From Balanoglossus misakiensis (lineage: Eukaryota > Animalia > Hemichordata), in NCBI GenBank assembly GCA_040954595.2, contig CM082594.2, positions 2,899,319 to 2,963,318 of the forward strand: a stretch of 64,000 nt of DNA, read 5' to 3'. Of this stretch, positions 1 to 62,485 are shown one piece after another. The position numbers and the translations under genes were made by a program. How positions within the stretch are numbered: position 1 is the first letter of the stretch; every line of letters starts with the position of its first letter. The notes below the pieces were generated by a model. The model had not been told where the DNA came from. It did not search any database and saw only the letters and a program-made list of their open reading frames with translations.

Positions 1-161
1 AGCTATTCTATGCTTATTTCATTCCCTGTTAACGTATGTGCTATGCCAGTAGATACTGATATTATTGTTAAGATTTTCCAGTGAAATAGCTTGCATTGCA
101 TCGTATTTAACGACACGTCAGAGTCCTCCCAAATTGCCTCTCATTTTATGGAAGAAAAAAA

Positions 162-1586
162 ATGGCTGTGTCCAAAATATCAATTCAAGAGCGAAGCATT
201 TATGTGCAACACTTGCCTTTTGAATGTACAAAGAAACATTTTAGAGAATTTATCGAGTTACAGCTTGGTTTGGCCCAGGTTGATCAAATTTATATTTCTG
301 ATAAAGATTCCGCTTTTGTCATATTTGAGAATATAGAATCAGCCACAGCCGCTCTGCCAGTAATACATAAAAGCACTTTTGAAGAAAGCAAATTACGGGC
401 AAGTCGTGTGACCACAGCCCGAGGGTTGGAACTGTGGCATTTAATTGAGGAAACCGAACAAAGTACTGGCCTAGATTACAATGAAACCAGTGATCCCAAG
501 ACATCCAAACCCAAAGCAGATGTACAGGAAATTATTAACATGTTGAGTTTACTGTCTGAAACAGATAGGAAAGCGGTTGCACAGGCCATATCACCTGCTC
601 CACTGAAACCAATCGTATCAACCCCTATGCCACAGCCGATTCCATTTCCAGCATTTCCAGTACCAACTTCAGTTGCAGATTCTTCACCATTTATTATGTC
701 TTCACCTGCCCAAGCAGCTGCTGCACAGCCAGCCACAGCCACTACTGCTTTTCACTCGGTGGAATTCCCAAGAATAGTCGTCTTCTCTGGCAAAGGTGAT
801 GTCACTTATGAAATGTGGCGATATGAAGTTCGAGCACTACACAGGGAGAATGTGTTTCCGGAGACCATAATTATGCAGGCTGTTCGGAAATCCCTACGAG
901 CGTCCGCTGCTGAAGTCCTACTACATATGGGAGAAGACATCACAGTGTCCCGATTGATGGCGAAGATGGACATGGTCTTTGGGAAAGTATTGCCACCGGA
1001 AGCAGTTTTGGAAAAATTCTATACAGCACGACAAACGAAGACAGAAAAGGTAGCAGAATGGGCCTGTCGCATCGAAGGACTTTTGGATGAACTCAGATCA
1101 GGTCAGTCCATCTCTAGTAATTCAGAAGAAACCATGCTTCGAACCAAATTCTTTTCTGGCCTGTCAGATGAGCACATTAAGAATGCAATCAGACACCGAT
1201 ATGATACGGGAGAAGATTATTCAGGATTGTTGCTAGCCGCAAGAAAGCTTGAAGTAAATAGGGAGACCACTACCAGGGTTCACCAAGCAACTGTTGCTGA
1301 CAAGACGATGATAACCAAATTGGAGGAACTTACCAAAGGTCTGAAGAACTTAGCTGAGAAGGTTGCTGAACTAGAGAAGCGAACTTCAACATCATCAACT
1401 CCAGAGTCTACTTTTCGCCGACGTGTCAACAATGAAAATGGCCGGGATCGGCGTGGCAACGATGGAACTCGCCAACCCAAACAAGTTTTCCCAGGCAACT
1501 GCTTCAAGTGTGGTGAACATGGACACAAAAAGACAGACTGTCCTTTAAATGGGGAGCGACCAGGCATCCGGAGGGACATGCGCTAG
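162..1586 (+). CDS. gag: Gag: N-terminal RRM-like domain, Pro/Ala-rich linker, PNMA-like capsid, coiled coil, CCHC zinc knuckle
   Basis: RNP2-like IYVQHL and RNP1-like DSAFVIF; capsid motifs FSGKGDVTYEMWRYEV and AVRKSLRASAAEV; knuckle CFKCGEHGHKKTDC. Confidence 0.93.
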   Translation: MAVSKISIQERSIYVQHLPFECTKKHFREFIELQLGLAQVDQIYISDKDSAFVIFENIESATAALPVIHKSTFEESKLRASRVTTARGLELWHLIEETEQSTGLDYNETSDPKTSKPKADVQEIINMLSLLSETDRKAVAQAISPAPLKPIVSTPMPQPIPFPAFPVPTSVADSSPFIMSSPAQAAAAQPATATTAFHSVEFPRIVVFSGKGDVTYEMWRYEVRALHRENVFPETIIMQAVRKSLRASAAEVLLHMGEDITVSRLMAKMDMVFGKVLPPEAVLEKFYTARQTKTEKVAEWACRIEGLLDELRSGQSISSNSEETMLRTKFFSGLSDEHIKNAIRHRYDTGEDYSGLLLAARKLEVNRETTTRVHQATVADKTMITKLEELTKGLKNLAEKVAELEKRTSTSSTPESTFRRRVNNENGRDRRGNDGTRQPKQVFPGNCFKCGEHGHKKTDCPLNGERPGIRRDMR

Positions 1587-1608
1587 GTCGGAACGGTAAC
1601 AGTCCCTC
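1544..1608 (+). promoter_or_regulatory. -1 ribosomal frameshift signal: slippery heptamer plus predicted pseudoknot
   Basis: T TTA AAT (1544-1550) in gag frame; after a 6-nt spacer, stems CGACC/GGTCG and GCAT/ATGC; loop GAGGGAC (1571-1577) complementary to GTCCCTC (1602-1608); the -1 frame is the pol frame. Confidence 0.8.
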
Positions 1609-4600
1609 TAATGTTATTGATTCTTTAATAGGCCACGCCAATGAAACTGAGATTGTGCTGGAAGGATCCTCGTGTATTGCGCTGATAGACACCGGGTCCA
1701 TGGTATCTACTGTTGCTGACACTTTTAACAGAGAGAAGCTACAGAAACCAATTCATGACCTGAACAACTTGGTGAAGGTAGAAGGGGCTAGTGGTACAGA
1801 AGTTCCTTACCTTGGTTATATTGAAGTTGAAGTGAAATTCCCAGATAGCCATGGACAAGAGATGTCTAAAGATATATTATTGCTTGTTGTTGAAGACACG
1901 GAATATAATCAGATGGTTCCAGTTGTGATAGGCACAAATGTTCTCCAACATTTTGTGGATGAAGATACACAGTACAGTACAGACCTATCCTCAGTATGGA
2001 GACTAGCATACCAAGCGACTATCCACCGGCAGAGGGCCGAAGGTAGGACATTTACAGTTACCACTACTAAACCCACAACCATTGGACCATACGAACGCAC
2101 AGTCATCCATGGATTTTGCAGAGTGGACCTAAGAAATTGTCAATCAGTAGTTGTGGTGGAACCAGAAAATGACAGACTTTTACCTGGTGGTTTACTTGTT
2201 ACTCCAGCCGTGTTGAAGTTAGAGCCTCGTGGTAATTCGTGTCGAATCCCAGTAATGGTGACCAACTATGGAGCACGTGCTGTCACAGTTCCCCCTAAAA
2301 GCACCCTATGTAACATGAACTTAGCATCTAATGTCTCACAGCCTTTAGATCCATATGGAGATGATATTGATACAAACTCAGATGGGACCACCTCACCAAA
2401 AGTACCCGATTGGCTGATAAAAGACCTGGGATTACAAGAGGCAGATACAGAATTAACAGAAATCCAGAAAGACCAAGCCTTGGCTACCATTGGTAAATGG
2501 CAAACCGTGTTCTCTACAGGTGAGAGAGATTTGGGACACACAACATTGGTAACACATTCGATAAAGTTAACGGATGAAACCCCCTTTAAAGATAAATACC
2601 GTCGAATCCCTATGGGTATGTACGAAGAATTGCAACAGTACCTGCAAGATATGCTACAGAGTGGTGTGATTAGAGAATCAAACAGCCCGTGGTCCTCAAA
2701 TGTTGTATGTGTCAGAAAACCTGATGGGAAGCTGAGGGTGTGTATTGATTATAGACGTCTCAACGCCAAAACCATTAAAGACGCTTACGCATTACCCCGG
2801 GTATTGGATACGCTTGATAACCTTAGTAACGCCGAGTGGTTTTCATCGCTTGATCTACGGTCTGGATATTACCAAGTAGAGATGGCGGAAGACGACAAAG
2901 CGAAGACAGCTTTCACGGTGGGAAACTTCGGCTTATTTGAATTCAACCGTATGTCTATGGGTCTGACCAACGCACCTGCAACTTTCCAGCGTCTCATGGA
3001 GAAGTGTTTTGGAGAATTGGCGTTCAGAGAATGTTGTGTGTATTTAGATGACATCATAGTATTTTCGAAGACTTTTGAAGACCACCTCAATAGATTGGAG
3101 CGGGTATTCCAGCGGCTGGCATCACATGGATTAAAGTTGAAGGCAACGAAATGTGTTTTATTCCAGAAGAAGGTGAAATATCTTGGACACGTGGTATCAG
3201 CCGACGGAATTACAACGGACCCAGACAAGGTAGCAGCTCTGAAGGAATGGCCAATACCCACTACTGTAACAGAACTGAGAAGATTTCTTGGATTTGCAGG
3301 GTATTACAGGAGATTTATCCAAAGCTACAGTAATATTGCCAAGCCACTTAACGACTTGCTGTGTGGACGTCAGTCAAGGAATAAGGCGGGAAAATTTGAA
3401 AAACTCCAGTGGGGACAACAGGAACAACAAGCTTTCGACACTCTGAGGAAGAGCCTAATGTCGTCACCAATACTAGCCTTTGCTGACTACTCACTTCCAT
3501 TTGAAATACATACTGATGCAAGTTCCACAGGTCTGGGAGCAGTGCTGTATCAACGCCAGAAAGGTATTCTCAGAGTAATTGCCTATGCAAGTAGAGGACT
3601 CACCAAGTCTGAAAGTAATTATCCAGCTCATAAATTAGAATTTTTGGCACTGAAATGGGCCGTCACCAAGAAGTTCAACGACTACCTGTATGGAAGCAAA
3701 TTCACTGTGTTTACAGACAACAACCCTTTGACGTATGTGTTAACTTCTGCGAAACTGGATGCGGTGGGACACAGATGGTTGTCAGACTTGTCATTGTACG
3801 ACTTCTCTATTGTTTACCGGAGTGGTAAGAAGAATATAGAGGCTGACGCTTTGTCTAGGATTCCATGGAATAGAGAGAATCCAGAGACGGAAACCAATCT
3901 GGGAGCCGATGTAGTCCAGGCGCTTTGTCGAGCAACAGAAGGTCCATACGTAACTTCATTCGGAATGGTAGCAGATGAGGACAGACCTGCAGTAGTTCAA
4001 GGTGGGGATGATGTGTTCTGGAAGACGGAGCAGTCCAAAGATTCAACAATACGGTATGTGACTGATCAGCTTGAAAAGGACCACAAACCACTTATGAGAG
4101 ATCATACAGGAGATATCAGACTACTTATACGAGATTGGAAACGCCTTGTTCTGAAGAATGGAGTCCTATACAGGAAATGCTTCATCGATGATATACAATA
4201 TTTGCAACTTGTCTTACCAGTACACCATAGAAAAGATGTCCTGGAGGAACTACATGATAAACTTGGACACTTTGGCCAAGATAAAACCCTGGATCTGGTA
4301 CGACGAAGATTCTACTGGCCTAGGATGTCGATGGATGTTCAAAAGAAGGTGGAACATTGTTTACCATGCATTCGCAGGAAAAGTTCAACTTCCTTACCCA
4401 GAACTCCCTTGGTTAATATTCACACATCACAACCGATGGAAATGGTGTGCATCGACTTTCTCCATATACCAACACCAGATCAAGGATATAGCAACATATT
4501 AGTGATGACGGACCATTTCACTCGATACGCTATAGCAGTACCTACAAAGAACCAGTCTGCCAAAACAACTGCCAAAGCATTGTTTGAACGTTTGATTTTG

Positions 4601-5803
4601 CATTATGGGTTCCCAGGACGATTACACGGTGACCAGGGGCGAAACTTTGAGTCGTCTACAATTCAGGAACTTTGCCGAATAACAAATATTAAGAAGTCCA
4701 GGACCACTCCATACCACCCCCAGGGAAATGGAATGTGCGAACGATTTAATAAGACGTTATTACAGATGCTTGGAACTATGAATGAAGACAACAAGACAAG
4801 ATGGGCTTCACATGTCAATACGATGGTTCATGCCTATAATTCTACAAAGCATGAAAGCACCGGATATTCACCTTTCTTTTTGATGTTTGGTCGTGAACCA
4901 AGACTGCCTATAGATGTATCTGGACATGCAGACCAGACCAACCTAGAATATGGTGGAACAGTTTCAGATTATGTGACGAAACTTGCCGAACGGTTGGATT
5001 ACGCCTATAAAGTAGCAACGGAACGGTCTGTTAAGTCTGGTGAACGGCAGAAGAAGTCATATGATAGAAAAGTGAAGGTGGCCATAATACAACCTGGTGA
5101 TACTGTGTTGGTGAAGAATACAGGACCTAAAGACAATTACAAATTGGCAGACCAATGGGAAAAGGATCCATATACAGTGATTTCACAGCCCATAGAAGAC
5201 ATTCCAGTATACGTGGTACAAAAACAAGTTAAGGGTGGAAGGAAGCGGACACTACATAGAAATTTGCTACTCCCAATACCAATAATTCCGGACGAACTGG
5301 ATGACGATGTTAACACCAAGATGACGCAGCGTGATGTTAAGCAGAGTGTACCGGGTGTTATCAACGATGCTACCCAGGATGCAGTGGACGAAGAGGATGA
5401 CGGCATTGGTAAATTGCAATTCGTGTCAACTATCAACTTGCCAACAGAACACAATGCTCTTAATCCTACTGCTGCAGAATTCATCCCATCCAGAAGAGAA
5501 AGTTCCCTGATGGACAACCCCACAAGTATGGTTAATCCGGATGGACCTTCTCAAGTACTTACCTCAGATTTCTCGAATCATATTTTGCAAAGTACGGATG
5601 GTTGGTCATCGAGCGATCCAGATGGTATCCCTCCTGCTACAACCAACATCAGTCCTGACTCCAGTAGTAGTACTCAACCTGAACCACGCTATCCTACACG
5701 ACAGAGACGACCTCCAGATAGATATAGTCCCGAACAATGGAATCTAAAACAGTTTGCTCATACGACTTTATCTTCTATACCATTTATTAATTGCCACTAT
5801 TAA
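1544..5803 (+). CDS. pol: Pol polyprotein (aspartic protease, RT, RNase H, integrase), probably made as Gag-Pol by -1 frameshift; ORF track starts it at GTG 1655
   Basis: ALIDTGS; CIDYRRLN, SSLDLRSGYYQV, YLDDII; HTDASSTGLGAVL; LHDKLGH...CLPC (HHCC); CIDFL / HGDQG / CERFN (DDE); frame stays open from 1544 to 1655. Confidence 0.96.
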   Translation, partial: FKWGATRHPEGHALGRNGNSPSNVIDSLIGHANETEIVLEGSSCIALIDTGSMVSTVADTFNREKLQKPIHDLNNLVKVEGASGTEVPYLGYIEVEVKFPDSHGQEMSKDILLLVVEDTEYNQMVPVVIGTNVLQHFVDEDTQYSTDLSSVWRLAYQATIHRQRAEGRTFTVTTTKPTTIGPYERTVIHGFCRVDLRNCQSVVVVEPENDRLLPGGLLVTPAVLKLEPRGNSCRIPVMVTNYGARAVTVPPKSTLCNMNLASNVSQPLDPYGDDIDTNSDGTTSPKVPDWLIKDLGLQEADTELTEIQKDQALATIGKWQTVFSTGERDLGHTTLVTHSIKLTDETPFKDKYRRIPMGMYEELQQYLQDMLQSGVIRESNSPWSSNVVCVRKPDGKLRVCIDYRRLNAKTIKDAYALPRVLDTLDNLSNAEWFSSLDLRSGYYQVEMAEDDKAKTAFTVGNFGLFEFNRMSMGLTNAPATFQRLMEKCFGELAFRECCVYLDDIIVFSKTFEDHLNRLERVFQRLASHGLKLKATKCVLFQKKVKYLGHVVSADGITTDPDKVAALKEWPIPTTVTELRRFLGFAGYYRRFIQSYSNIAKPLNDLLCGRQSRNKAGKFEKLQWGQQEQQAFDTLRKSLMSSPILAFADYSLPFEIHTDASSTGLGAVLYQRQKGILRVIAYASRGLTKSESNYPAHKLEFLALKWAVTKKFNDYLYGSKFTVFTDNNPLTYVLTSAKLDAVGHRWLSDLSLYDFSIVYRSGKKNIEADALSRIPWNRENPETETNLGADVVQALCRATEGPYVTSFGMVADEDRPAVVQGGDDVFWKTEQSKDSTIRYVTDQLEKDHKPLMRDHTGDIRLLIRDWKRLVLKNGVLYRKCFIDDIQYLQLVLPVHHRKDVLEELHDKLGHFGQDKTLDLVRRRFYWPRMSMDVQKKVEHCLPCIRRKSSTSLPRTPLVNIHTSQPMEMVCIDFLHIPTPDQGYSNILVMTDHFTRYAIAVPTKNQSAKTTAKALFERLILHYGFPGRLHGDQGRNFESSTIQELCRITNIKKSRTTPYHPQGNGMCERFNKTLLQMLGTMNEDNKTRWASHVNTMVHAYNSTKHESTGYSPFFLMFGREPRLPIDVSGHADQTNLEYGGTVSDYVTKLAERLDYAYKVATERSVKSGERQKKSYDRKVKVAIIQPGDTVLVKNTGPKDNYKLADQWEKDPYTVISQPIEDIPVYVVQKQVKGGRKRTLHRNLLLPIPIIPDELDDDVNTKMTQRDVKQSVPGVINDATQDAVDEEDDGIGKLQFVSTINLPTEHNALNPTAAEFIPSRRESSLMDNPTSMVNPDGPSQVLTSDFSNHILQSTDGWSSSDPDGIPPATTNISPDSSSSTQPEPRYPTRQRRPPDRYSPEQWNLKQFAHTTLSSIPFINCHY

Positions 5804-6029
5804 TCAAATATCTTTAACTTACTTTAAATGACGAGGACGCCATTTCTCCTCGCAGGGGTGCGTGTAACGGCCTTGTTGATCCATTGAATTTGTATACATG
5901 TATATCTGTATGTATGTTATACCTGTATCTTATAGTAATTAGTTATTCAATTATTCATATGACGTAATAGTACTTACCTTCAATTGGTTGATCTTAATTA
6001 TATGCAAACCACCTGGAAGTTTCATTTGA

Positions 6030-6106
6030 CCAATGAACACAAGCTAATCTGGCACTATGATGTAATTGCTGATATAAAAGGACATGGTGCATAAAATTGG
6101 TCAGTT
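6030..6106 (+). promoter_or_regulatory. LTR Pol II core promoter
   Basis: CCAAT 6030-6034, TATAAAA 6073-6079, initiator TCAGTT 6101-6106 with its A exactly 30 nt after the TATA start. Confidence 0.75.
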
Positions 6107-6422
6107 CACCTCTGTAGCCAGACCGGCCACACACGTTGGAACTGACATGTATTTGTTCCATTTCAGGTTAGTTTCCTTGTACCTTACCTGTTGCTTGAAG
6201 CTTTGTATTTTGGTGCATTCTACCGACTCATTTCAGCACAAGTAATTGGTGTCTTTAACTTGCGTCAATTTTCCAATTGTATGTCTATATTTTTCACTTG
6301 CATGAATTTTGGTGTATTCTGTTGGAAATGGAACTCCCATACATGTGTGTAATTTAGCAGTTCACCTCTGTAGCCAGACCGGCCACACACGTTGGAACTG
6401 ACATGTATTTGTTCCATTTCAG
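6102..6422 (+). repeat. Perfect 65-bp direct repeat inside the LTR (6102-6166 and 6358-6422)
   Basis: CAGTTCACCTCTGTAGCC...GTTCCATTTCAG is identical in both copies; copy 1 is followed by GTTAGT, copy 2 by TTATTAAA. Confidence 0.97.
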
Positions 6423-6795
6423 TTATTAAATGTAAGGCCTATGTCTTTGTTACCCGTAACCTGTTTGGTGTGAATATGTTGGAATGAACGGCGACAACCG
6501 TGACATAATTAATCAGTTAATGATATACTAAAAGTGGGCAGCTACTAGGGCTTTAATTTTGCCCGGCGTCTTGGACAAAATCCTTCTTTTCTTGACAGAA
6601 ATGACTCCTTCAGTCGTAGTTAGAGAGCTTTGATATTGATATCTTTCCGGCAAAATTAAAGTGTGTTTGTGTCCGGTAAGGGCAAACCCTTCTGCTCAGT
6701 TTAGACAGTGACGAGCAGTGCTATATTCGAAACGTTTTACAGTTTGGGCATCGATGTTTGAATGACGTTGCATTTGTTCACCGAGTAGTCGCCTA

Positions 6796-9395
6796 TTAGC
6801 AGCCAACTTCATCGCTACCGTCGTGGCAGTCCGCCCCTCCATCACAGCGCCAACTGCTATATGTGCACTGACCAAAGTATTGACATCGCCACTCTTCTAG
6901 CGCACACGGGCTTGAATCTAAACCCAAGAAAACATTATTGTAAAACATGTTTTTTGCCTCAGAATGACAACATTCTCAATTGGTCCACGTGAATAATAAC
7001 GTCACTCCATTAGAATGATATAAGATGTCAAATATAAGCATACCGTTGTCCAACTCATACATGGCCCACTAAACCCCCTGCAGCTGTATCTGAACAATAT
7101 GTGAGACCGTTAACACTAGTCTGGTCCCCTGCCCCAATCCCACCGCTGGCTGCGCTACGCTACAGGGAAAGGGCCAGGCACGGCCTATTGTAAACATGGC
7201 TCTCATTGGTCAATAAATACGAGCATTAAGTTGTAAGGCCTAAGTTGTTGTAAGATACTTATTTCCCGTTCTCTCCTTCACCTCCATGAATGTTTATCAT
7301 TAGATTTCCAACTTATCGACAAATGAAACGCCATAAACCGCCTGGACGAATCTTGACTGGCGTACGGACATTGGAGGCATCCATCTTGTTTATGATCACG
7401 TGGTCTGCTCAGGTTTCTGGGCATGATATCGGGCCGTACCTGACCCCTTTCCCTTTAGCGTAGTGCAGCCAGCGGTGGGATTGGGGCAGGGGACCAGACT
7501 ACGTTAAAGGTATACAGTCACTTCAAATTACATATTATTATGATATACCCATATATGGCTGAAATGGCATATTTGAGTGTTCTAAAGAACATATGGTGGC
7601 GCTCTTTTTTTCGCGTGTGCCACCCACTGAAAATCTGTGATTGGCTAGATCTCAATTTGCCATGGTAACTGTGGCTCATTTTCCATAGGTGACTGTATAC
7701 CTTTAACACATGGGAGCACAACGTACTAACTGGCTGTCATCGACAATGCATATGCGCGACTTTTCTGTTTATGAACACACCATCCTCACTGTTCCAGCAG
7801 TACACGTTATATCCGTTATATCAAACTAACCTGAAAATGTGATCAATATAATGATGCGGATTGTGTGTTATAAACAGAAAAGTCGCACATGTGCAGTTCA
7901 GACGAAACTTCCCCTTCAAGACTGTAGAATGCATGCCCATACACATGGCCCAGGCGTAATAGTTCGGTCTTTAATGTACGTATTAAAATCAGAAACTTAC
8001 TGCAGTGGGCTTCATCACTGTTGTCGCCACAGTCGTCGTAATTGTCACATTCCCAATGCGCAACTATACATTTACCATTGAAACATTGAAAGCCTGTGCA
8101 TGGACCTGCAATGATGGCAAGGAAAAGGCATATTGTTTCAATACAGTCCATTCTTTAGATATATACCCCTTATTTTGCAACACATTTCTGCTAGCACGTT
8201 ATGTCAAAAACTTTAATAATGGAGATATTACCTCAAACAAAAAATAAAATTGCACAATACAATACAATACAATACAATACAATACAATACAATACAATAC
8301 AATACAATACAATACAATACAATACAATACAATACAATACAATACAATACAATACAATACAATACAATACAATACAATACAATACAGCACAACACAATAC
8401 AATACAATACAACACAACACAATATGATACAATACTATACAATACAATGTAGCCGAGTAATTACAATGATAAAACAAAACAAACGGCAATAACACAAACA
8501 AGACAGCACAGATCATCAAAGCAATAATTACAACACATGACCCATCGCTCCATGATAGCAGGGTGCTCAGTAAATATAAGCCTATAGATATGCTCGGCTT
8601 AGCAGAAGAACTACAAATGGCTAGAACTAACAAGAGACATACGGACGAGATGCACAAAATCCACAAATATTTAATTGTCGCACTACGGTGAGCACTTACA
8701 ATTATTTTCGTCAGTACCATCCCCACAGTCATCGTAGTTGTCACATCGCCAGGTGTTATAAATGCATCTACCGTCATTACAGCGGAAGTTTGGGTAACAT
8801 TCATCCAGCGGTAGAACTTGAATGAAAACGAAACATTCAGAAGTAACATATGAAATACCTTGGATCCAGCAGACTGTATGGATTTTCAGAAACACTGTTC
8901 ACTCTTTCGACTGGTGACGTCATCTGGTCCCAACACGACGACATACAGACTATCGATACTATATATTCAGCAAGCGCGGGAACATCCAGATGCAATGTAT
9001 GTAAATGATAGAATCTAGCAGACGTGCTGGTGCTCAGCCAGCAGTATTTGCACATATGGCTACAATTTCCCTATTTAACACTGTTTTTACCCTGTTCCTA
9101 TTTTCTTGTGAAGTCAATGTTATCCACACGTTTCAAATGTTCTAGCACTCTGACAGGATTTAGCCAAGTTTTACACTACACAATATACGAGAGTACATTA
9201 TTTAGACCTTCAGCGGAATTACACATGTAGTCAACTTGAGCTGCAGACATGAGATTACAATTGGTTTGATTGAATACTCACGGACACACGACAGCTCGTC
9301 ATCCCAATGTGGACAGTCATATACCTGATCACATCGTTTCGACATCGGAATACACAATCCAGTCTTGCATTGAAAATCCAGCCCACATGGACCTG

Positions 9396-18900: not shown

Positions 18901-21900
18901 CCATGCGACAACGTTTTCACAGAAAGGCGTTTTAATTAAAATAGGCGTACGGTGTAACTGCTACAATGTTCCCAAAGGAAAACAATATAGATGTTACTTT
19001 TTATTATTTTCATAGACCAGAGTGTGACGTCATACTACAGTAATATAAAATCGTCACTGCCAATAATTCTGCTGGAACTACTTTCAGTTTGTAAACAAAT
19101 AAAAAAATACTATTCTACGATGTTATTGCGTAATACTATAATAGTGGGTGGGCTTTGAAGTTTGTGAAATATGGGGTTACAAATAATAAAGCACATATCG
19201 CTTAATGATGTTCTATTTGTTTGCTCGATGTATTGAAACTATGGCGGTAAAATTTTGAGGCTGTCGTCTGCGCTTCAATTTTTTTGTTCGATCAAAGATG
19301 TCAGCGACAGAGCGGCACATAGCTATGTCGTCGAACGACATTGACGATTTTATAACGAGCCAAAGAAAGCAGAACACTGTAAAATCGACCAGAAACGCAG
19401 TGAAACAACTTAGATAATGTCTAGAGGAGACAGAAGATGGTTTAGCGACAGATATACATGCAATTCCGCCTGAAATACTGGACGTCTACCTGTCGAACTT
19501 CTTCATCGGGTCGAGACAGAGCGACGGGTCTGACTACGAGCCGGACACTCTCACAGCATACCAGCGTGGGATCGACATGTATTTAGCGGAGAATGGATAT
19601 AAATATTTCATTTGCAGGGATAAAATATTCACCAAATCGCAAGAAGCCCTGCGAGCCAAAAGATGCGAATTAAAGGGCAAGGGAATAAATCCCATGCGAT
19701 GGAACCACTGACCGACGATGAAATCAACATCATGCGTGAGAAGGGTATCCTTGGAAATCATAGTCCCGAGTCACTTCTGTATACGGTTTGGTGGAACAAC
19801 ACCACATTGTTAGGATTCCGAGCCTCCGATGAGAACAAGAAACTGCTCTGGGGAGACATCCAGCTAAAAGAAACGGCAGCGGGTCGGGAATATCTTGAAT
19901 TTAACGAGCGCGACAACAAAACAAATTCCGGTCAAGACGCAAGTTTCGTTCGCCCGTTTTGTCCAAAGATGTTTGCCGTAACCGATAAAGCCATCTGTCC
20001 GAATAGTCCTGTTTCATAAGTCAGGTCCATGACATATGTACCGACATCTGTGATTGGTCCATCTGGTAATCTTAGGTCCACTTGCGGCGCGCTGATTGGA
20101 GGGACCTTATGTGTTAGGTCTTATCATTATGTATTATTCACTAGACCTTGTAGGTTAGGTCTTATTACTATGTATTATTCACTTTACAGCTCCTTGATTG
20201 GTTAATGTGTAGGTCTGGTCCTCCAGTGTTCACTGCCTCATTATGCAGGACCTTGTAGGTTAGGTCTTATTAATATGTATTTATTCAATTTTCAGTTCCC
20301 TGATTGGTTAATGTGTAGGTCTCCAGTTTTCACTGCCTCGTTATGCAAAGTCTTTTGTACTTTCTGAATACTGTTGTCGTATTCTGTCTGGCATGCTACC
20401 TGCGCGTGGTCGAAGCTCGTGATCGATCCCAGTGTATAAAGAAAGGCACTCATATAATGATTGGATTGCACATTTTCCTTCACACTATTCATGGCATTTT
20501 ATGTGGAACTGTGAACTAGATACTCGAAATAAAAATTGCCAGGAGAAATTTCGCATTTATTTCCAGTGGCGGTTTGTTGAAAGTGGCTAGTGTTTTGTTA
20601 CGTAATGCCTTTCAGCGCATCACTTCATGTAACATCTGGCCATACAGACTGACACGTTAACCAATCAGGGAGCTGTATGGTGAATAAATACATATTAATA
20701 AGACCTAACCTACAAGGTCCTGCATAATGAGGCAGTGAACACTGGAGGACCAGACCTACACATTAACCAATCAGGGAGCTGTAAAGTGAATAATGCATAG
20801 TAATAAGACCTAACCTACAAGGTCTGGTGAATAATACATAGTAATAAGACCTAACACATAAGGTCCCTCCAATCAGCGTGCCACAAGTGGACCTTAGAGA
20901 AGCGGATAAACCAATCAGAACATGCAATACATGTGCATAGGACCTGTAATGTAGGTCATTTTGAAACAGGACTATTAATCACACAAGGCATACCGCTCTC
21001 ATCGACCACCAGAGCTATGTATACCCGAATCCCGTTTTTACCTTGCCATTAACTACAACCCAACAACCAACATGTGGTACAAGCGACAACCCATGGGAAA
21101 GAATAAACTAGAAAGCATAGTGCAGACCATGGCGACAAAAGCAGACATTCCAGGCCGTAAAACAAACCACAGCGCAAGGAAAACAACCATCCAAGAGTTG
21201 AACTATCGGCTCGGAAGGATACGGCCGCTATTGGGGAATCACTCGTCCCTCGCTGACGTAATACACGTTCGAAATACTGGGAGATTATATATAAAGATTT
21301 ATAGACAAAAGTTGACTCAATATTGAAATAAGTGAGGTAGAGACCATAAATTGCTTCACTGGATGTTCAGTCTTGTCAGCCTACAACTGTGGAGATCTAG
21401 TACATTTTACAAGTATTTCAGCGTGTTTCAAGCAGTCAAACACCAAGAACGGCGGCTAGCTTTTCATATCAAGCACAATTCATGGAAAAAGGCTCGAAAA
21501 AAAAAAACGACTTTGCCCCTTTAGATATATTTGTAATTTTGTGGGGACAATTTTGCTGCGCGCGATTGAATTTGTTTGATGTAACAATTTAAATTCATGC
21601 AACAATTGTTTTGACTGGACGGTTACAATTGCTTCAGTGATACTGCACATTTGTTACAGATGCTTTCTCAAGTTTGGAGTTGCTATCAGTTCGACGTCAA
21701 ATCCGATGATATAGCTGTATGTTTACCACGGCGAATATCTTGTTATTACACATTCATTTTATTTCATACACTTATTATCTGCCAGATTCTACGTTTCAAG
21801 TCCATAGTCACCTACCTTATCGCTATATGGTTGTACTTTACTGGTTTTCATCTCGGAAGTCAAATAAATCCTGTTTCGTCCCCTTCGTTACTATCACCGT

Positions 21901-24300: not shown

Positions 24301-27300
24301 TTAAAATGCATCGACATAAGACACAACATAGTTGTTAGAGTTGTACAGTCCGGCCTGATTAATGGCTGTGATAACCACGTGATACTCCTTGGACGGATCA
24401 ACATTATCCACTATTATCTGCGTTTCCATGGTTTCCAGCCATTTCAGCACGTCATTGCTCGAGTAGGCCGTACCAACTGTCAGTTCATAGACAAGGCTTG
24501 AGTTGCTGACGAAAGCACCAGTCCAGTTCAAATGCAAGGTGTCATCTGACAACCACGTGACCGACAGCTCAGGCTCTATGCATTACAAGACACAGGGAAG
24601 AAAAGATGACCATTGTTTATAGGGGAACAAACAATTTATAGGGGAACAAACAATTTATAGAGGAACAAACATTCTTGCATAAACAACACCTCGTGGTTTT
24701 ATTCTCTAACAAAATTGGAGGTGGTACCCATCCAGTATTTGGGCTATATATTCTCAGTATGTTTGTTTTGGAAATCAACTGTAGTTTCTTGTGTTACTCT
24801 GTCCAACGTAAAAAATAACAGTATCTGTTTTTACAACACACCTCTTTTGGTACAATCAGCATTGATAGTTGAAAATTCAGGACTTAATACTCAATTGCCA
24901 AATCGGCTTTGTTGAGACGCGAAAGACTGGTCATTTTAGTAAATCTCTCCAGAGTAGAATATGAAGACAAAGTAGATACATAGGATAAAAATACTAATTA
25001 TTGGTACCTTTTATTATTGGTGGTTCCGTTTCAATGGATAAGTTGGCAGAAACGCATGCGCTATAAATGTCTCCGTAATTGACGGCTCTGACAAGTATTC
25101 CATAGGTCTCGTAGGAATTCAGGTGAAAGCCGTGGACCAGGGCAAACGTTTCTCCACCTTCAGCAACGTCGGTCCAATCAAACACTTTACCTTCCTTACT
25201 GTGCATCGTACACTGGAATAAGTGAAAACAAAGAACAATGAACAGGATTAATTACAAACGGTCCTGAGTGGTCTCACAGTGAAAACCAATTCCACCAAAA
25301 TCAAGAATTACCTGGTAATGTGATAGGCCGGCAATATCCTGAAATCCTCGCCAAGAAAAATTCACTGAATTTGTTATTGATTGGTGATCTTCTCTTGTTG
25401 GATAGTGAGTTTCTGATGATATTATTAGTTCTACGATAGCATTATCAGCATCCGGGGCATCGGTTACTATGGTAACGCCATCGGTCATGACCACACTTGA
25501 CAATCCTATGTAATTGTGACAACGGATTGTAGAGAATAGTGTTTGTCCATGTCCAACTTGACCAGTCACATTAACCATGCTGTGATTCTTTTTGTCAGAT
25601 TGTGTGAAGTCTTGAATTTCTGAAGAGCCTGGGTCTAGACCTAAACACGTAAACAGGAGGATGGGTCATTAAAATAAATACTACTAGAAGATAAATGAAC
25701 AAACAACCAAATGAATGAATGAATGAATGAATGAAAGAATGAAAAACCCAAAGAAACAATCAAACACTGCCAGGAACGCACAATTGTCTCCATTTAAATG
25801 AGATCATTGACGTATGGGGCCTAACGTTATAGTATAACATTTACATTTTCCAGCTGATTAAAATCAGCTGAAGGGATTGGCTCCGTCTGTTCATTTACCG
25901 TGTTTTCGCTGTTCTCGTTATGTGTGGGAGATGCACCAGCAAATAAGACCTCGTATATAGACACGGAATCTAATCAGTTTTCTCACAGCTGATATTCATC
26001 AGACCCATATATATATCTTACCAACAGCACTCTCGCAGTAGTGAATCCCACTCTCGATATCTTCCACTGACCAATGAATTGATAATATCAACGAATTTTG
26101 ATAATCAATATCGTCTTCTCCGTCACCTTCCTGTCATATTAATTAGTAGAAATTATGAACTAGTCACACTAAAACAACACAATGAACGTTTGAAATTCAA
26201 TCTAACAGACAGTTGGTGTTTGAACCAAACAACCATTTGTAAAGACAGAACGAAATTTCCCGTTGTTAAACACGAAAAAGCTAGATATTACCTTCGCACA
26301 ACACAAGTTTGGAGCCGATGTGTCCACCACTGTTGCATCCGAATAAATGACAGATTCCAGCTCTGCTGCATTTCTTGTCACAACTGTAACAAAAACTTGT
26401 GATCCTTGAAAAAGTGTCAATCCATGACATGTAGCTGATGTTTTCTTTCCAGTCGACGTAAATCCTAGCAACTGGGTTCCTCCTGCAAGTAATTACGGAC
26501 AGTTCGAAGTCACAAAAGTGCTACAGACACAAACGTACATATTTATAACACTTAGTTTTTTAATGGCCAGTAAAGTCCAAGCTTGTCCAATTGACGCAAT
26601 CAAAACATCTAAATATGACTCATATAATGTTGTAAGCGATTTCACAACAGATATACATGTGGTTCTCCGAGGTTCGAAAATATTATGTTAAGGCTAAGAC
26701 TGAAAAGCGGGCAATAAATGTGACTTCATTTTCTTAGCCTTTCTGTTTCGCCTATTAAAGAACGTTTACCTTTAACAGTGCCAATTGCCCATATATTTTC
26801 TGTGATTGGACTTTCCACGTCAATAACGTCCCAACGTGCGTGTACTGAATACAATTCCCCAACATTCTGTATCTCAACATGAATGACACTCGAAAGGTCG
26901 TTCATCGGATGATTTGGATCTTCGTGTTGTCCCCGCTCTCCTTCACTGAGCATGCGTACCTCTACCTGGTCAATGGCAATTCCTGTTGGGGGGAAATGTT
27001 TTGTGTTGATGTCAAACGTTGTATAATGTGTGCATGGTCTGTGTAAATACAGTTGCGTATTTTTCCGCTGTTTATTTGTAGTGGGTATTTGTCTATTGAC
27101 AACTTTTCAACGTACCATTTTGACCTAACGAGCCCAGGGTCAATGTGGTTGCGTCATCTTCTGCGATGAAGTATTCTTGGTGTAACTCCCAAACCAGTTT
27201 GCTTTCATCGTTGGAGTCGCTGTCATGATCAAATCCACCTTTTCGTTGATAGAGTTTGAAAACTTGATTCACACGAGACACTCTCATAAAGCCTTCCTGG

Positions 27301-28620
27301 TTTAAGGCTGGTGTACTTGACCGAGGAATGTGGCTTGCATAGAATTGCATGCTATATTTTTCTCCGGCAGTTGTGTTGAAAGTTTGGGTAATTTCACCAA
27401 AGAGCATCGCGAAAGAATCGCCATGTTTGGCCACTTTGTAATGGCATGTGGCCGCGTGTGCTTTTCCATCCACCGTCCAGTGCTTGGGGGCGCCCTGTAG
27501 TACGCAATCGTCAACGTTGAAAGGCAAAGTGTCATTTGCAACGTCAGATTCCTCAAAAGATGGGTTTAAGAGTACGTTGTCACTGAAGTTGAATTTCTGT
27601 AACGCTTCAGGTGGACTTGTGTCTATGACGATTCCATTAGATGAAGAGGGGTCCGATTCCAGTCCAGCTGCGTCAACAGCAATAACCGTGGAGTACACCT
27701 TAGTCCCTAGAGAGAGAAAGTAAATGTCGCCAGTGTCAAGGCTTTTTCAGAAGAATTTTCTGATGCATGCGGAAAAAATCAATTGTAACGTTCACAAGTG
27801 TATACGCTGACTGAAAATGGCGAGCTGTTGTTTTAGATCCTACACAATTAATTCCGTGTTTATTTCGTACTCAGTTGAACTTTTCTTATTGAATTGTGTA
27901 GTATATTGATGTATGATATAAAGGACGCGTTCTGTAATTGTTTCTGACTATTTTTTTCAGTTTTTTTTTAATCGGCGTATAACTACATTTTCTTGTACTC
28001 CTCTCTATAGTATCCCAACACGACCTGGTCAGATTTGCTTGTCAACAAGTCACCATGTGTACCCATTGTTGATTTTGGTGACAGACGAATTCATGTCCGG
28101 ACTAGAATAAAATTTGTAACCATTTAACCCAGCCTCAGACAGCCAATCTACAAACAACGGTTGACAAACAAAATGAGAATACTAAAAAAACATGAAAGTC
28201 ACAAGTAGCGAACCCTTAATGACACCAGAGATTCTGTGTACGTAATGGGGGAAATAACAACAACTTTCGATTTACCAGATGCAAGTGGATGTCTTAAAGC
28301 CTGTGTCTGTGACACTTGCAGTCCAACCGAGTGGCAGGGAATGACATCTTCAGCACCAGGTGTTGTACCAACGCACCAGAGGTAATTGTCTATGAACGAC
28401 TGCAGATCAGAAAACCCATGCCAAGAAGCAGACATGACTGTGCTTGAATTCTGGTAGGCTGCATCGTAAATGTTTAGGCCATCATAAACAACGCCATTTG
28501 TTGGCCTGACTCTGTCGACCTTTCAATGAAAGAGAAAATTATACACATGGTGTTCATAGAAGTTTCATGAAACTGTTAGTATTATTGTTGCCGTTTTATA
28601 CATTGCTGTTGTAATGTTTG

Positions 28621-34600: not shown

Positions 34601-37600
34601 CCCCACGCAGTTGCTTGCTCATCAGTGGTCATCGTAAAAGGCGATACATCTGTTGCGCCAGGTTTGGAACCTATGCCCCATTCGTAGAATGAAATGCCTG
34701 CAGACACAGAAAGACAAAGACGGATAATAAGTGTGTTGAGAAAACCAAACTAAACCTGTTCAAAGACAAACAAAATCAGACAGGGGACTCACCACTCTCT
34801 GTATCTTGGAACACGCGTTCCCATGATGCACTTAAAGTAGTCGTGGATTGGTGATATCCGCCGCCCACGTGAATGGTTGCATCTGTCATGAAAGGTGGCG
34901 TAGTGTCAATAGTAACTCCAGGCGATCCAGCCTCAGTAGACAAACCAACAAAGTCGATACCTAAATGTTTAAAAGACAAAAATACAAAAATAAAAGAACG
35001 CAGAACATGACAATACACCTATCATAATTGTTTAATTTTTTAAATATTAAATGATTCAAAGTCTGCCGCGACTGATGGCATTGTCGGTTGAAGTTTGGTT
35101 GACCGAAGAGATTAAAAACAACCAGTACATGATATCCTCAATACGGATGATACACCATGCTACTCAACAAAAGAGGGATTAAAGCTTAATTGACATCTTT
35201 CACTGGAGTAGCATAATTAGTTACCTCTTACTGTAGCATAACACGTGGAGCCAGGCTGTAGCAACTGTGTGAGAAGGAAGACCCAATTGACGATACCAAC
35301 ATCTATGAATTCATGTATGTCCACACCACCGGGAGACGTTCCTGAAAAGGAAATAAGGTGAAAGTTGTCATAGAGTAACTCGCATGTGTATATATCCTCT
35401 ATGCTTGTAACTAACGTGAACTTACTTACCCACAGCCACTTCATAATTCCTTATTCCACTCTCATGAGAAATTTGTCCTGACTCTTCAACATCGACAAAA
35501 TTCTCCCAGTTGATAAGGAGATGCGATGTTGATGTCTGTAAAAGAATGTGTAGGCGAGTTCAGATGGTTAAGTAATGAACAAAAATGGAATGGAGTAAAT
35601 GATAAGGGTACGACTTCAATAAAATGGTGGAATCAATCATAAAAATATAAAATGTCGAAACAGCTTGCAACTGAGAGCAAGGAATAATATTTGAATAATA
35701 ATATTATTTGAAGAACATATATTTTAAAGTAAACATTGTAAAATAAAATAACCTGATATTGCATTCCCGGCCACCCTATCCAAATTTTACTGGCTGTTGG
35801 TGCTGACCAATCGACCGTAATGCCGTTTGAACATTCTGATATCTCTGGTGCTTGGTTGGAAATGTCTTCGTTGGTCGACAAACTGTTATTTGCATATATG
35901 CAAATGTAGGATCTCTGACCATGTCCAAGATTTAGGCTATGGACATTCACGAAGTTTTCCTGCCAACGGAATGAGTAAATTGATTTCAATTAGCGATGTT
36001 ATTAATTTCATACAAAATATTAAACGTTATAGGTTGACACTGCCGTTAGAAAATGTTTTGTTCTCAAAGATGTTATACGCCAAATCTCACAATTTCACAA
36101 ATATTCATGTCATTCCTGACTCAACTAGAGAAATTGAAAGAAAATGACTTTACATTTGTTGTCCCGCATGCCAGGACTTCAGGTGAGTCGCACTGAAATG
36201 TATGGTAATCTAACACGCCATCGGGTTCTGTATATGCCCAGCGTCTGATGGCGTCGTCAGAAACAACTTTCCATTGATATTCAATATAAAGAAGGGATGG
36301 CCAAACGGCTGACAGCTTATGCTTTGAGAGTGTGTACTCTTCGTCTGAATGTGGCCAGTCGCTGTTTACTTCCAAGTGGATATCCCTGTAGAGAAATAGT
36401 ATTGTCAGTGCATTTAATTCTCGAGCCAATAAATTATCCCAAACCTTAAAGCACCAATAGCCCCCAACTTTGTGCCATTTTCTTAGTAGTATTTTTTTGT
36501 GTATCAAATGTGGAGTGCAAAAAATACATGTTTTTTTTCACCCTATTTTGTATAAATCAACATTGTAAGTGTTAAAAATTGAATTCTTCTTCAGAGAAGA
36601 TTTTTTTGCCAACGATACCAGTGACTGTTACTCATGTCACGGTGCAGGTTTTGGTGGGAATTCAATCTAAGGCTCGAATATTTCATAAAGTTACCCAGAG
36701 TAAAATAAGCAACTGGAGTAGACACATGAGAGAAAAATACTGAAAAGTTGAGAAACAAACTCACTCCACATCTCCTTGATTATCAGATTCACCGACGGCA
36801 TCGATGACGACATTAGGAACAATGTATTTCGGATAGATGGAGTCACAGTCATAAATTTCTTGATAGATTGTTGAGTATAATCCGGCCTTGTTGTGACCGC
36901 GTATGGCAAGATACATGCATTCTGAGAAAACAAGCTTGTCTTCCAGGCTGGCTGTGTAGGTGAGCTAAATGGAATGACAATGTTATGTTAATATAAGCTT
37001 ACTAGCTGACGTTTAAGAGCAATTACATTTCCTTGTCTTAACATCCGTGTGTGGAGTGAACGCGTAAGTAGTTTCTAAATATTTCCAAAGTTTGTCATCT
37101 TATTATTCAATTTGCACGATACATTTAAATGCCATTAATATTTCCTTCACGTTGATTGAAATATACTACTGAAATGTCTCTGTTGTGCCGCATTGTGTAG
37201 ATTGTTGGTCAAACAAAGTCCGATCATGGAATAACTTTTGAGACGGAAAAAGACTGTTACGTAGTAATGTGTTAGACCCCGGTATAGGTATATCGTAATG
37301 TACAAAATCTGTAGGAATATATGTTACCATATTTTCGTGATACAACGGATTGGATACGTGTTTCCATTGATATAGAAAGTCACCATACGTTGAGGACTTA
37401 GTGTTGACAGCAATATTCCACTCATGATAATCCATATATTCAGCACTTTCCAATTTTTCAGTAACTTCACTGTTTAAAAATTCAAACCACGTGAATTCTA
37501 GATTCGTTGACCTGTCCAGGAAGAAATGTAAAACCTAACGCAATTTATTAATTATAACCTGATGATTATTGATGTTATTTATCATATACTAGAATGTATG

Positions 37601-40600
37601 TATGTATGTATGTATGTATGTATGTATGTATGTATGTATGTATGTATGTATGTATGTATGTATGTATGTATGTATGTATGTATGTATGTATGTATGTATG
37701 TATGTATGTATGTATGTATGTATGTATGTATGTATGTATGTATGTATGTATGTATGTATGTATGTATGTATGTATGTATGTATGTATGTATGTATGTATG
37801 TATGTATGTATGTATGTATGTATGTATGTATGTATGTATGTATGTATGTATGTATGTATGTATGTATGTATGTATGTATGTATGTATGTATGTATGTATG
37901 TATGTATGTATGTATGTATGTATGTATGTATGTATGTATGTATGTATGTATGTATGTATGTATGTATGTATGTATGTATGTATGTATGTATGTATGTATG
38001 TATGTATGTATGTATGTATGTATGTATGTATGTATGTATGTATGTATGTATGTATGTATGTATGTATGTATGTATGTATGTATGTATGTATGTATGTATG
38101 TATGTATGTATGTATGTATGTATGTATGTATGTATGTATGTATGTATGTATGTATGTATGTATGTATGTATGTATGTATGTATGTATGTATGTATGTATG
38201 TATGTATGTATGTATGTATGTATGTATGTATGTATGTATGTATGTATGTATGTATGTATGTATGTATGTATGTATGTATGTATGTATGTATGTATGTATG
38301 TATGTATGTATGTATGTATGTATGTATGTATGTATGTATGTATGTATGTATGTATGTATGTATGTATGTATGTATGTATGTATGTATGTATGTATGTATG
38401 TATGTATGTATGTATGTATGTATGTATGTATGTATGTATGTATGTATGTATACATGTATGCAACAATGCGTTTTATGTGAAGTGATAGATTTTTATTATG
38501 TAGACCTTGATGCTTACCCATTATATAAAATATTCTGAATTCCTTCAGAAACCGGAGGATATGGTGTTACCCAGACACCATCACTGTGTACAGGATGAAA
38601 GCATCCATCAGGATAGCAGAACTTGACAACTGTTCGGTAATGATTTCCTGCCATTAGATTCTGGTCCGTGAATTGCACATGTTTGTTAACGTGCATACGT
38701 TCATATTGGTGAACGGTACTCCATGTTGAGCTGCAGAACGAAATCGCGGCGTAAATACAACAACCTGGTAGGTCAATTCGCATACAGTTATAACATACTT
38801 TTTATTGTTAAATGGGAAGTCCAGTCCAGCTGATTTCTACATAATTTTGTAGCTTTGAGGTCACCTTTCAGAAAAAAAATTGTTTCGCCATGTATAAGTC
38901 GCGCGAGTATTAAAAAAAACGAGGGAAAGTTGTCAGAATTTCCAATATGGCGTTTAATGTAATTTGAATCATGGGAAAAGGGCACCAGGACCAACTGCCG
39001 CCTAACTTGGTGTGGGTGATACCATTTTCCCATTGGTGTCACTGCACGACAAGGTAGACGTATTTGTATATCTATTGTTTGTACTTTGCGTATGTGCACC
39101 TAGTTTGTGATAATATTTACACACACACCTGTTGTCTGAATCTTTCCTCTCGATGCTAACTTCAATAAAGGTGATGTAGTCCAATGTTTCATTGGGTAAT
39201 ACCCAGTGACCCATCACTGTAGACGTTGATGCTTGGTAATCAATGTCACCATCACAAGATGATCTGCTGGTATGGTCATGGTGCGTATTATTCAAATTAA
39301 CATCGCTTGTGTCTAGTACAAAAAATGAAGCGTAAGTGAACAGGACTAGTAAATATTACATATAACGAATTCAATTGATAATATTTTCACACCTTTATAT
39401 TAACTGACAATGGGCTATACAATGAAGACGTATACAGGCGTTGCATGTAAGCACGATTATAATCACTATTATAATCGCATTTATAGACATGCTTCTTAGT
39501 GATCAAGTTTTACAGTTTTCTATTATCCGACAGGGAGGTTTACAGCACTTTAGTCTCCGGGGGGGGGGAGACACTTCATGGAAGAGCAACTTCATTTTCC
39601 CGCCTTGACAATATTTGCAGTTTCCTATAGGGGGGAGTCAATACTAGGAACAGCCTTTTCCATTTTACAGCCGTGACTTCAAGACAACGAGCTGGTTCAT
39701 CTCCTCGAAATTTCACTCCCACCGCCTCCCCATCTACCTCCCCTACATAGGTCGTATGGGTCGGAGGTATATGTATTTTAGAGCTTACATGGACTTTGTA
39801 TCTTTATTTATCTCATTGTCGCATTGGATTGTAGTTGTTAGAGGCGTTTTTAGGCCCACACCTTTGTGGGAGATTCTTTATGTACCTATTTTACAGTGTT
39901 TAGTGTTATGTTAATTTTCCTCGCCAGTTGACCTTTGACCTATACCTACCTTGTTGAGGTTTTTGCTGTTTTATTGAGGCAGGCAACTGGCGAGGAATTT
40001 TTCATCATCTTTACACATTGTTAACCTTTGCAATAAAGGGTCAATATCTCTTGGCCATTTTTCGCCAATTCTGGTTGTGTTGTGTTTTTGTATCTCCCAC
40101 AAACAGAGCAAAATGACCAGTACAGGTCTATTCTGGTGCAGGGATATAAATGATAATATGTTATAATTATTATAATTATCCGTTACAGTGAAGTTTCACA
40201 AGCTTGAAGTAATCACCGCTATTCGAGCAACAGTGTTCGAAATTAAATTATCATCACCTTTCTTTTTACAGCTAGGGCCATCGAAAACTACAGCGTCCTC
40301 GATATAACTATTGTCTCCAATCACAGTTACTCCATCTGAGCTTGCAACCACGCTGCCAGATTCGGTAGTGGCTCTCACTGTGACATAATATTTCTTGGTT
40401 TGAAAAATAAAATACCAATACATTAGCACCATGCAGTCTATAGAAACTATTAGCAGCAGTGTCAGCAGTTTCAAATTAACCCTTTCACCCCAGTTCCCTC
40501 TATAGAGGTCCAACTTTACCATAGAAAACAATTGATTTAGGTCAAACTAAGGTGGTGAAAAGGTTAACACAGCGAGCCTGAGTATCTATGGCTTATTGAC

Positions 40601-60089: not shown

Positions 60090-60711
60090 CTATAGTTAAA
60101 ATAAATGTAGTTAGTTATTTCTTAAAAAATGACCAAAAATTGATGCAATTCGCGGGTTCCGAGTTCTCAATAAAGTAGAAAGTTCATAGACTCTTGTCGC
60201 CTGGGGGCGTGCGAGTTGAGACAATTATTAATAGATTATTATTAGAAGAATGTAATATGTCACTCTTAAATATTGTGTTTATCTTTCGTTGTTATGTAAA
60301 AGCGCACTTAATATATTAATAACATTGAATAAACTGCGAAACTGCGAAGAGAGAGGTGTGGAACCCTTTTTATCTTATATATAGTACACGAATTCTTATG
60401 AAATTAATTTAACTACTTGGATTGTGAAGGATACGTAGAGAGGTAACCCCGCCATCTATCCAAACACCTCAACTGTTTTCTACCTAAGTACTTTGTACCC
60501 TCATATAGTACGTAATGTAAGTACATTTACATGTATACATACATATGTAGCAAGCCCTAAATTGTCATTATAATCCGACCTGAATGCACAAATTATTTTC
60601 TTGAAAGCACACAAATATTGTCAAATATATATAATAAACTATATATACGATTTGGGAGTTCGTTGCAAGTACTGCTGGCAGAGTGCTCGATGGTGTAAAT
60701 CCAGAGCTTGA

Positions 60712-60986
60712 TAGTAGAGTGTGCAGGGGAACTAAGGCTGTTTTGACATAGGCGGTGTATTACTGTTCAGTTTCGTGTAAGCGGGGCCTACACTCGTCAG
60801 ATACTGATGCCTGAATGATGGAGGGTGTGGACAACAGGGAATTTATACTGGGCAGGGTGAATATGCAAATGAGCCTACAATATGCAAATGAGCTGAGGTT
60901 AACCGTCCTTTTAATTCATCACAGGCAGACTGACAGTCAGAAGTCCAACCCTCAAAACAGCCTTAGTTCCCTTGCACACTCTACTA
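60712..60986. mobile_element. MITE with 35-bp TIRs carrying a 59-bp Gypsy pol fragment
   Basis: TAGTAGAGTGTGCAGGGGAACTAAGGCTGTTTTGA / TCAAAACAGCCTTAGTTCCCTTGCACACTCTACTA; 60890-60948 matches 61644-61702. Confidence 0.85.
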
Positions 60987-61196
60987 ATAAACTATATATG
61001 TATATTCCTTTCAAAGATGTACACACGAACTAATCTGGTTGTTTCAACTGTTTATTATCTTCGCACATCGTTTCGTCCTAAAAAATAGGACTTCATCAAG
61101 TGTTATCAACAGAGCAAAGATATCAACGACAGAATAAGCACACATGGTTGACGATGTAAAAACAGTGAAATGAAGTTGACATAACGGTACAAAAGA

Positions 61197-62270: not shown

Positions 62271-62485
62271 GAAAAATGGGAGAGGCTGGCTGGATCTGGG
62301 AAAATTTGTCAATAACCAATTTGGAGGTACCAAAATACCAAAGGTGAAAGCCGATATCGAGATCAATTGAAATGTAAAATTTCTACACCAGGCCCTTTCC
62401 ATGTTGAGATCTGTAATAACTTACATAGAAGGTACACGCGAGTACACACCGCACATATTGTCTACTTATAATTTTTACTTATTAA

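Follow-up and report, generated by a model that had tools for sequence, protein, structure and literature searches.

The retrotransposon at the 5' end of the window

The window, that is, the whole 64,000-nucleotide stretch of Balanoglossus misakiensis DNA analyzed here, begins within the leader of an LTR retrotransposon whose 5' LTR and primer-binding site (PBS) lie outside it. The features of the element and its 3' LTR are as follows.

111..1586, plus strand: gag ORF (stop to stop), with an RRM-like N-terminus, a PNMA domain and a CCHC knuckle
1517..5803, plus strand: pol ORF in the -1 frame, with RT, RNase H and integrase in Gypsy order
5830..5862, plus strand: motif conserved upstream of the LTRs of relatives, and a polypurine-tract-like segment, both recognized from sequence
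5863..6505, plus strand: 3' LTR, 643 bp, with inverted ends TGTAACGG...CCGTGACA, delimited by contig ends of run X1
6041..6051, plus strand: arm in U3 with predicted pairing to the donor at 6164-6174 (11 bp, two G-U), which the RNA would carry solely at its 3' end
6073..6079, plus strand: TATA box, 29 nt upstream of copy 1
6102..6166, plus strand: copy 1 of a 65-nt repeat, the predicted exon 1, from an initiator-like TCAGTT to the donor (supported by boundary statistics)
6164..6172, plus strand: splice-donor-like site CAG/GTTAGT (from sequence; 6160-6170 is unchanged in a diverged contig)
6167..6422, plus strand: predicted 256-nt GT-AG intron, made up of a 191-nt T-rich spacer and copy 2 (from sequence)
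6358..6422, plus strand: copy 2, the predicted intron tail with the acceptor and predicted landing site of strong-stop DNA; a G precedes it at 6357
6423..6505, plus strand: 83-nt tail, containing the end of the RNA's terminal redundancy and U5
6425..6430, plus strand: poly(A) signal ATTAAA, with GU-rich stretches at 6441-6450 and 6462-6472 and a putative cleavage site

The element itself is an ordinary Gypsy retrotransposon (Ty3/Gypsy, Metaviridae) with a PNMA-like gag, and its relatives number thousands in fish and marine invertebrates. The Pfam domains of pol are in the order RVT_1, RT_RNaseH, Integrase_H2C2, rve (a DDE integrase); PNMA and zf-CCHC matches within 111-1586 place gag upstream of pol; and 5863-6505 has TG...CA ends behind a purine tract. 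What sets it apart from elements of this kind is that its LTR contains two copies of the predicted first exon around a GT-AG segment. The RRM-like match at the gag N-terminus is weak (E = 4e-4, just under the Pfam cut-off). Where gag and pol overlap in the -1 frame, a TTTAAAT heptamer (1544-1550) is a possible frameshift site.

Elsewhere in the window there is an exon-sized host-gene ORF on the minus strand (27096-27746), related to acorn-worm fibronectin type III proteins. It has four matches, of which the best three, at 39-48% identity, come from acorn worms, and which by themselves point to a probable invertebrate deuterostome host. Also on the minus strand lies what is left of a further retroelement, with an RNase H-like match (61423-62067). 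MITE-like elements with long terminal inverted repeats lie at 7117-7501, 20022-20946, 49579-49869, 60696-61002 and 62481-62777, and long simple-sequence arrays at 8194-8503 and 37414-38566 yield spurious ORFs.

The 65-nt repeat of the 3' LTR

The limits of the LTR are given by contigs of run X1, which begin at 5863 and whose match ends at 6505. An exact 65-nt repeat had been predicted within it, and 6102-6166 is indeed identical to 6358-6422 and can be extended at neither end. The landmarks lie where the original prediction put them: TATAAAA at 6073, TCAGTT at 6101, CAG/GTTAGT at 6164-6172, and ATTAAA at 6425. CTGAC is at 6142 and 6398. The repeat starts a single base upstream of the canonical initiator A. 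Among the window's two-copy exact repeats of at least 30 nt with a spacing of 60-1500 nt it is the longest; the sole other one measures 31 nt. A 5' stem pairing CAGTTC with GAACTG had also been proposed, and here the data did not bear the idea out, the fold being no better than chance (z = -0.71 vs shuffles); just two of 13 elements (the present one and the 12 relatives described below) have repeats that fold better than shuffles. Rfam gave no match in window positions 5800-6600 at E values up to 1.

Independent contigs came from run X1, the kind of which was not recorded, and run X2 from the same sample; depths are low and single differences may be errors. In X1 the repeat forms a 65-nt contig of its own with a depth of 7.8, as against 4.02 for U3, 3.78 for the spacer and 4.2 for the tail. 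This roughly twofold depth indicates two copies per LTR and so excludes an assembly artefact. Relative to the window, the X1 spacer has 10-nt and 1-nt deletions and two substitutions, and its repeat is identical. A diverged contig retains 6160-6170, the donor included, and has a changed CTGAC motif; in one diverged U3 contig three of the 11 positions of the U3 arm are altered (only the arm side is seen). A further family of X1 contigs shares window positions 6088-6129, with the TATA box at the same distance and with different flanks. No splice junction is present in the contigs of X1 and X2, although contigs are unable to demonstrate absence. Five raw RNA runs chosen by species label (X21, X4, X3, X5 and X7) yielded no matching read, an outcome that carries no weight for or against splicing.

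Recurrence of the layout in relatives

Relatives were sought with an alignment of 36 pol proteins as the query. The resulting 115 loci consisted of 35 from host contigs in bacterial bins and the best 80 of 559 confirmed metagenome stretches. Seven near-duplicates and 77 loci without a readable whole LTR were dropped, and the remaining 31 were classed by eye. The 35 loci (L001-L035) are animal-type Gypsy pol loci in bacterial metagenome-assembled genomes, and are probably host contamination of the bins. Scans of IMG/VR found no relatives.

The duplication, which the original prediction had proposed to look for in other family members, is present in 12 of the 31 non-redundant relatives (one of these, L050, is divided between contig ends, L007 shows rearrangement on its upstream side, and the U3 of L065 lies at the other contig end); since repeats of this kind may be collapsed or broken in short-read assembly, the count of 12 in 31 may be an underestimate. 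Nine others have an intron-like segment and no duplicate, and ten have shorter LTRs classed as lacking the duplicate, of which two (L041 and L085) have donor-like sites. The pol proteins of the relatives are 37-54% identical to that of the window, and PBS motifs follow their LTRs. The repeat sequences of different elements are unrelated (pairwise local scores of at most 23). Over the window and the 12 duplicated relatives the repeat ranges from 23 to 104 nt and the predicted intron from 153 to 620 nt. The two copies, predicted to be held identical, are exact in ten of the 13 elements and 96-97% alike in the other three. Copy 1 ends at AG/GT in all 13, matching the donor consensus of a GT-AG intron, and copy 2 ends in AG without a following GT. 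The layout U3 - copy 1 - GT spacer - copy 2 (AG) - tail is thus shown in the window and in 12 relatives; it is real, recurrent and precisely bounded.

The nine intron-like LTRs without a duplicate (L004, L009, L015, L019, L045, L047, L055, L078 and L115) have donor- and acceptor-like sites, a short terminal exon and often AATAAA, and measure about 600-2100 bp where the start could be located. In L009 both LTRs are present and are 99.7% identical. Judging from such sites, LTR-embedded introns may be common in this Gypsy group. The idea that the duplicate is a way to keep an LTR intron is partly supported: 12 of the 31 have it, but it is not required for an intron-like segment, given the nine with an intron-like segment and no duplicate, among which L009 in particular indicates that unspliced genome RNA is a working alternative. 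A search of eight non-duplicated LTRs for degenerate copies of exon 1 gave nothing convincing (the best was a 22-nt match in L115, reached in 4 of 200 shuffles), and inspection by eye of L007, a rearranged locus, did not reveal a pre-spliced two-exon copy.

On a quick, unrooted pol tree of 32 rows the duplicated state takes 8 changes vs 10.5 in shuffles, 35 of 500 of which were as low. It is therefore barely clustered, and on an unrooted tree the direction of change cannot be read.

Several loci deserve separate mention. A look for orphan acceptors in the ten short LTRs used a filter too loose for its hits to count as evidence; among these, L040 (6022 to the end plus 1-195) has a short LTR with an acceptor-like site and no donor, and is the tree sister of the duplicated L036; from its sequence it could be a collapsed form that has lost the intron. 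L052 (6968-7340) and the 3' ends of L043, L054 and L006 are truncated LTRs with a pyrimidine-rich AG/G(T) site; the L052 contig stops exactly at this site, as expected if assembly broke at a repeat. In L007 (12040-13600) foreign sequence breaks up the 3' LTR and recurs in inverted orientation ahead of the 5' LTR; a long reading frame there, on the minus strand, has a visual resemblance to a Polinton-type capsid gene.

Boundaries of the duplicates

Among 256 possible boundary classes AG/GT ranks first, with 13 of 116 sequences (two of them, L041 and L090, probably non-LTR hits) vs a mean of 0.55. In strand controls on the 116 sequences the counts were plus 15, minus 1, reversed 2 and complement 7 (mostly between element copies).

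The end of the repeat has the character of an acceptor. Its pyrimidine fraction is 0.71 (n = 13), vs 0.45 at the automatically chosen donors of eight LTRs that lack the duplicate (P = 0.0025) and 0.53 over 430 further AG sites; the AG-free zone has a median of 35 nt vs 10; and the terminus is YAG, as in acceptors, in 12 of 13 duplicated elements. The original prediction had read the repeat end as branch point, pyrimidine tract and acceptor; of these the pyrimidine tract and acceptor character stand, but the branch-point motif, found in 5 of 13 elements, is at background (42%).

The start of copy 1 lies in an initiator-like context. Copy 1 begins at a pyrimidine-purine step in 11 of 12 scorable elements, the exception being the window, by one base. 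TATA-like motifs are found in just 4 of the 13. The base before copy 2 is a purine in 11 of 12 elements and a G in 8 of 12 (expected 25%, P = 0.0025), or in 6 of 10 (P = 0.024) without L042 and L007; the four that lack the G include L001, the best-scoring named-genome hit. The addition of untemplated C by reverse transcriptase is cap-dependent. In the case of MMLV reverse transcriptase, the portion of the report used here describes untemplated C added at cDNA ends (PMC3877366). Copying of the cap would predict a G before copy 2. In four of the eight cases, however, this G is part of an AG, so that a relic acceptor is an alternative source.

Poly(A) signals and masking of the donor at the 3' end

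Rebuilding an intron in the manner set out below requires an unspliced 3' LTR, which must therefore escape splicing. Two predicted routes were found. First, in the window the predicted probability that the donor is unpaired falls from 0.33 to 0.03 when U3 is included, a value as low in none of 40 shuffled U3s; the strength of the duplex between the U3 arm and the donor was equalled in 8 of 300 shuffles. Such masking is predicted in only three of 11 elements (the window, L053 and L063), and not in the eight others. Second, AATAAA lies inside the repeat in four elements and at or just before copy 2 in two, so that in these six cleavage could precede the acceptor. In five elements a hexamer lies just after the acceptor (one of these also has AATAAA inside the repeat or at copy 2), and three lack a canonical poly(A) signal close to copy 2.

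A proposed self-renewing intron

From these sequence features we propose, with a probability of about 0.7, that the LTR works as a self-renewing intron, spliced at the RNA's 5' end, left unspliced at the 3' end and rebuilt during reverse transcription. Transcription would start at copy 1 of the 5' LTR, and removal of the cap-proximal intron (spacer plus copy 2), with a predicted 6166^6423 junction, would give an RNA that begins with copy 1, the tail and the PBS. The 3' LTR would be left unspliced, in the window through pairing of U3 with the donor and a poly(A) signal that abuts the acceptor, and in other families because cleavage would fall inside copy 2, ahead of the acceptor. The unspliced 3' end of this RNA would read U3 - copy 1 - spacer - copy 2 - part of the tail. 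Transfer of strong-stop DNA through terminal redundancy is established chemistry; here the DNA would anneal to its putative target, copy 2 and the tail up to the poly(A) site, and extension would copy the spacer, exon 1 (copy 1) and the promoter as an extended U3, restoring the full LTR. Copy 2 would be overwritten from copy 1 in each cycle, which would keep the copies identical and fix a G of cap origin ahead of copy 2. Exon 1 would have to end in a sequence that doubles as an acceptor, and mis-annealing to copy 1 would permanently delete the intron.

Such a scheme would explain both boundaries, the identity of the copies, the acceptor-like end of the exon and the G before copy 2. The core of the model as first put forward has comparative support in the layout with unrelated sequences in 12 relatives, near-perfect copy identity, the acceptor-like end, the initiator context and the excess of G, together with two copies per LTR in independent data; the 5' stem and the branch point do not exceed chance.

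Alternative explanations

The main rival, which we regard as unlikely, is that the duplication is a one-off by-product of splicing: an intron-bearing LTR would once have been copied from 5'-spliced RNA, and the element would thereafter have used unspliced genome RNA with a long R. Copy identity would then reflect young age or template switching between direct repeats. The nine intron-like relatives without a duplicate are a plausible source state; boundaries at an initiator and a donor, and a cap G, are predicted equally by this origin; and the duplicated state is scattered over the pol tree, where 8 changes and weak clustering are as compatible with repeated origins as a by-product as with a single origin followed by losses. 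What it leaves unpredicted is the acceptor character of the exon end, which is present in the duplicated elements and absent at the donors of non-duplicated LTRs. Exact copies in 10 of 13 elements would need many independent young events, and in X1 the spacer has changed and both copies have not. Direct repeats in unspliced retroviral RNA moreover tend toward deletion.

A poly(A) switch that works without splicing is a good deal less probable still. On this account the donor, with U1 bound, would hold back cleavage both around copy 1 and in the 5' LTR, the donor-less copy 2 would mark the 3' end, and the duplicate would persist because it controls 3'-end formation, in a variation on the foamy virus arrangement. 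Suppression of LTR polyadenylation by U1 is established in the accounts consulted in part here (PMC3694450; PMC12789967), and both the distribution of poly(A) hexamers (AATAAA inside the repeat in four elements and at or just before copy 2 in two, a hexamer past the acceptor in five) and the predicted masking of the donor by U3 in three of 11 elements fit such a switch. The acceptor character, copy identity and the G before copy 2 are all left unexplained by it. A poly(A) switch could also operate alongside a self-renewing intron.

Two further readings can be dealt with briefly. That transcription starts at copy 2, making this the ordinary R and copy 1 a passive piece of U3, would suit the position of copy 2 at the usual place of R, beside the poly(A) signal and U5, and is nevertheless very improbable: it is copy 1 that has the TATA box and the pyrimidine-purine context, a purine precedes copy 2 in 11 of 12 elements, and there would be no force keeping copy 1 identical or placing its end at a donor. 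Internal repeats are frequent in LTRs, and just one LTR lies within the window, yet a random tandem-like duplication in a single copy, or an assembly artefact, is largely refuted by the two copies per LTR in independent contigs and by the recurrence of the same boundaries in 12 relatives with unrelated sequence, far above controls.

Relation to known systems

The proposed self-renewing intron can be set beside several known systems. In retroviruses and LTR retrotransposons the transfer of strong-stop DNA is guided by an R region, which lies directly behind the cap and a second time ahead of the poly(A) tail, as set out in the sections consulted of PMC12789967. The likeness is that here too a cap-proximal sequence, repeated before the poly(A) tail, would guide first strand transfer; the difference is that R would exist only after 5' splicing, and that each LTR has two copies, one of them intronic. 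The foamy virus LTR has its major splice donor in R, and U3-dependent refolding conceals that donor at the 3' LTR (Schrom et al. 2013, PMC3694450). Both have a donor within the LTR upstream of the poly(A) signal; masking by U3 at the 3' end is, in the present case, a prediction that applies to three of 11 elements. Neither a duplicated R nor an LTR-closed intron is described in the parts of the foamy virus report drawn on. Penelope-like elements have a 5'-UTR intron in the terminal repeat that is kept through retrotransposition, the significance of this retention being called unknown (PMC8557442). Retention in a terminal repeat is the shared feature, but Penelope-like elements are of a different subclass, with pseudo-LTRs and a GIY-YIG endonuclease, and the portion of that report used here describes no exon duplicate. 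The window element is not itself Penelope-like, given its DDE integrase and true LTR.

Retention of a terminal-repeat intron (in Penelope-like elements) and masking of a donor (in foamy viruses) are therefore already known. For an LTR intron rebuilt by way of a duplicated first exon we found no description in the literature searched, which did not extend to Repbase Reports and most subscription journals, where such LTRs may be described. We consider it probable, if slightly less so than the reading for the window itself, that this is a widespread and undescribed strategy: many LTR retrotransposons would encode their first exon twice, use 5'-spliced, 3'-unspliced RNA as the genome, and rebuild the intron in reverse transcription, with the acceptor overwritten from exon 1 in every cycle.

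Implications

Passage through RNA is held to purge introns from LTR elements, a rule that underlies the standard retrotransposition reporters and ideas of host sensing of intronless RNA. If the proposal is true, an intron passes to the next generation of copies by way of an RNA that no longer contains it, and the layout is a simple way round purging that uses ordinary splicing and ordinary strand transfer. The element would gain the benefits of a 5' intron; protection from HUSH, part of the original rationale, is a vertebrate argument, whereas the neighbouring ORF of the window (27096-27746) has its best matches in acorn worms. There would also be a mechanism for the concerted evolution of two short repeats, and a mark of the cap, left in the DNA, would report the start site. 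The annotation of U3, R and U5 in such LTRs would change.
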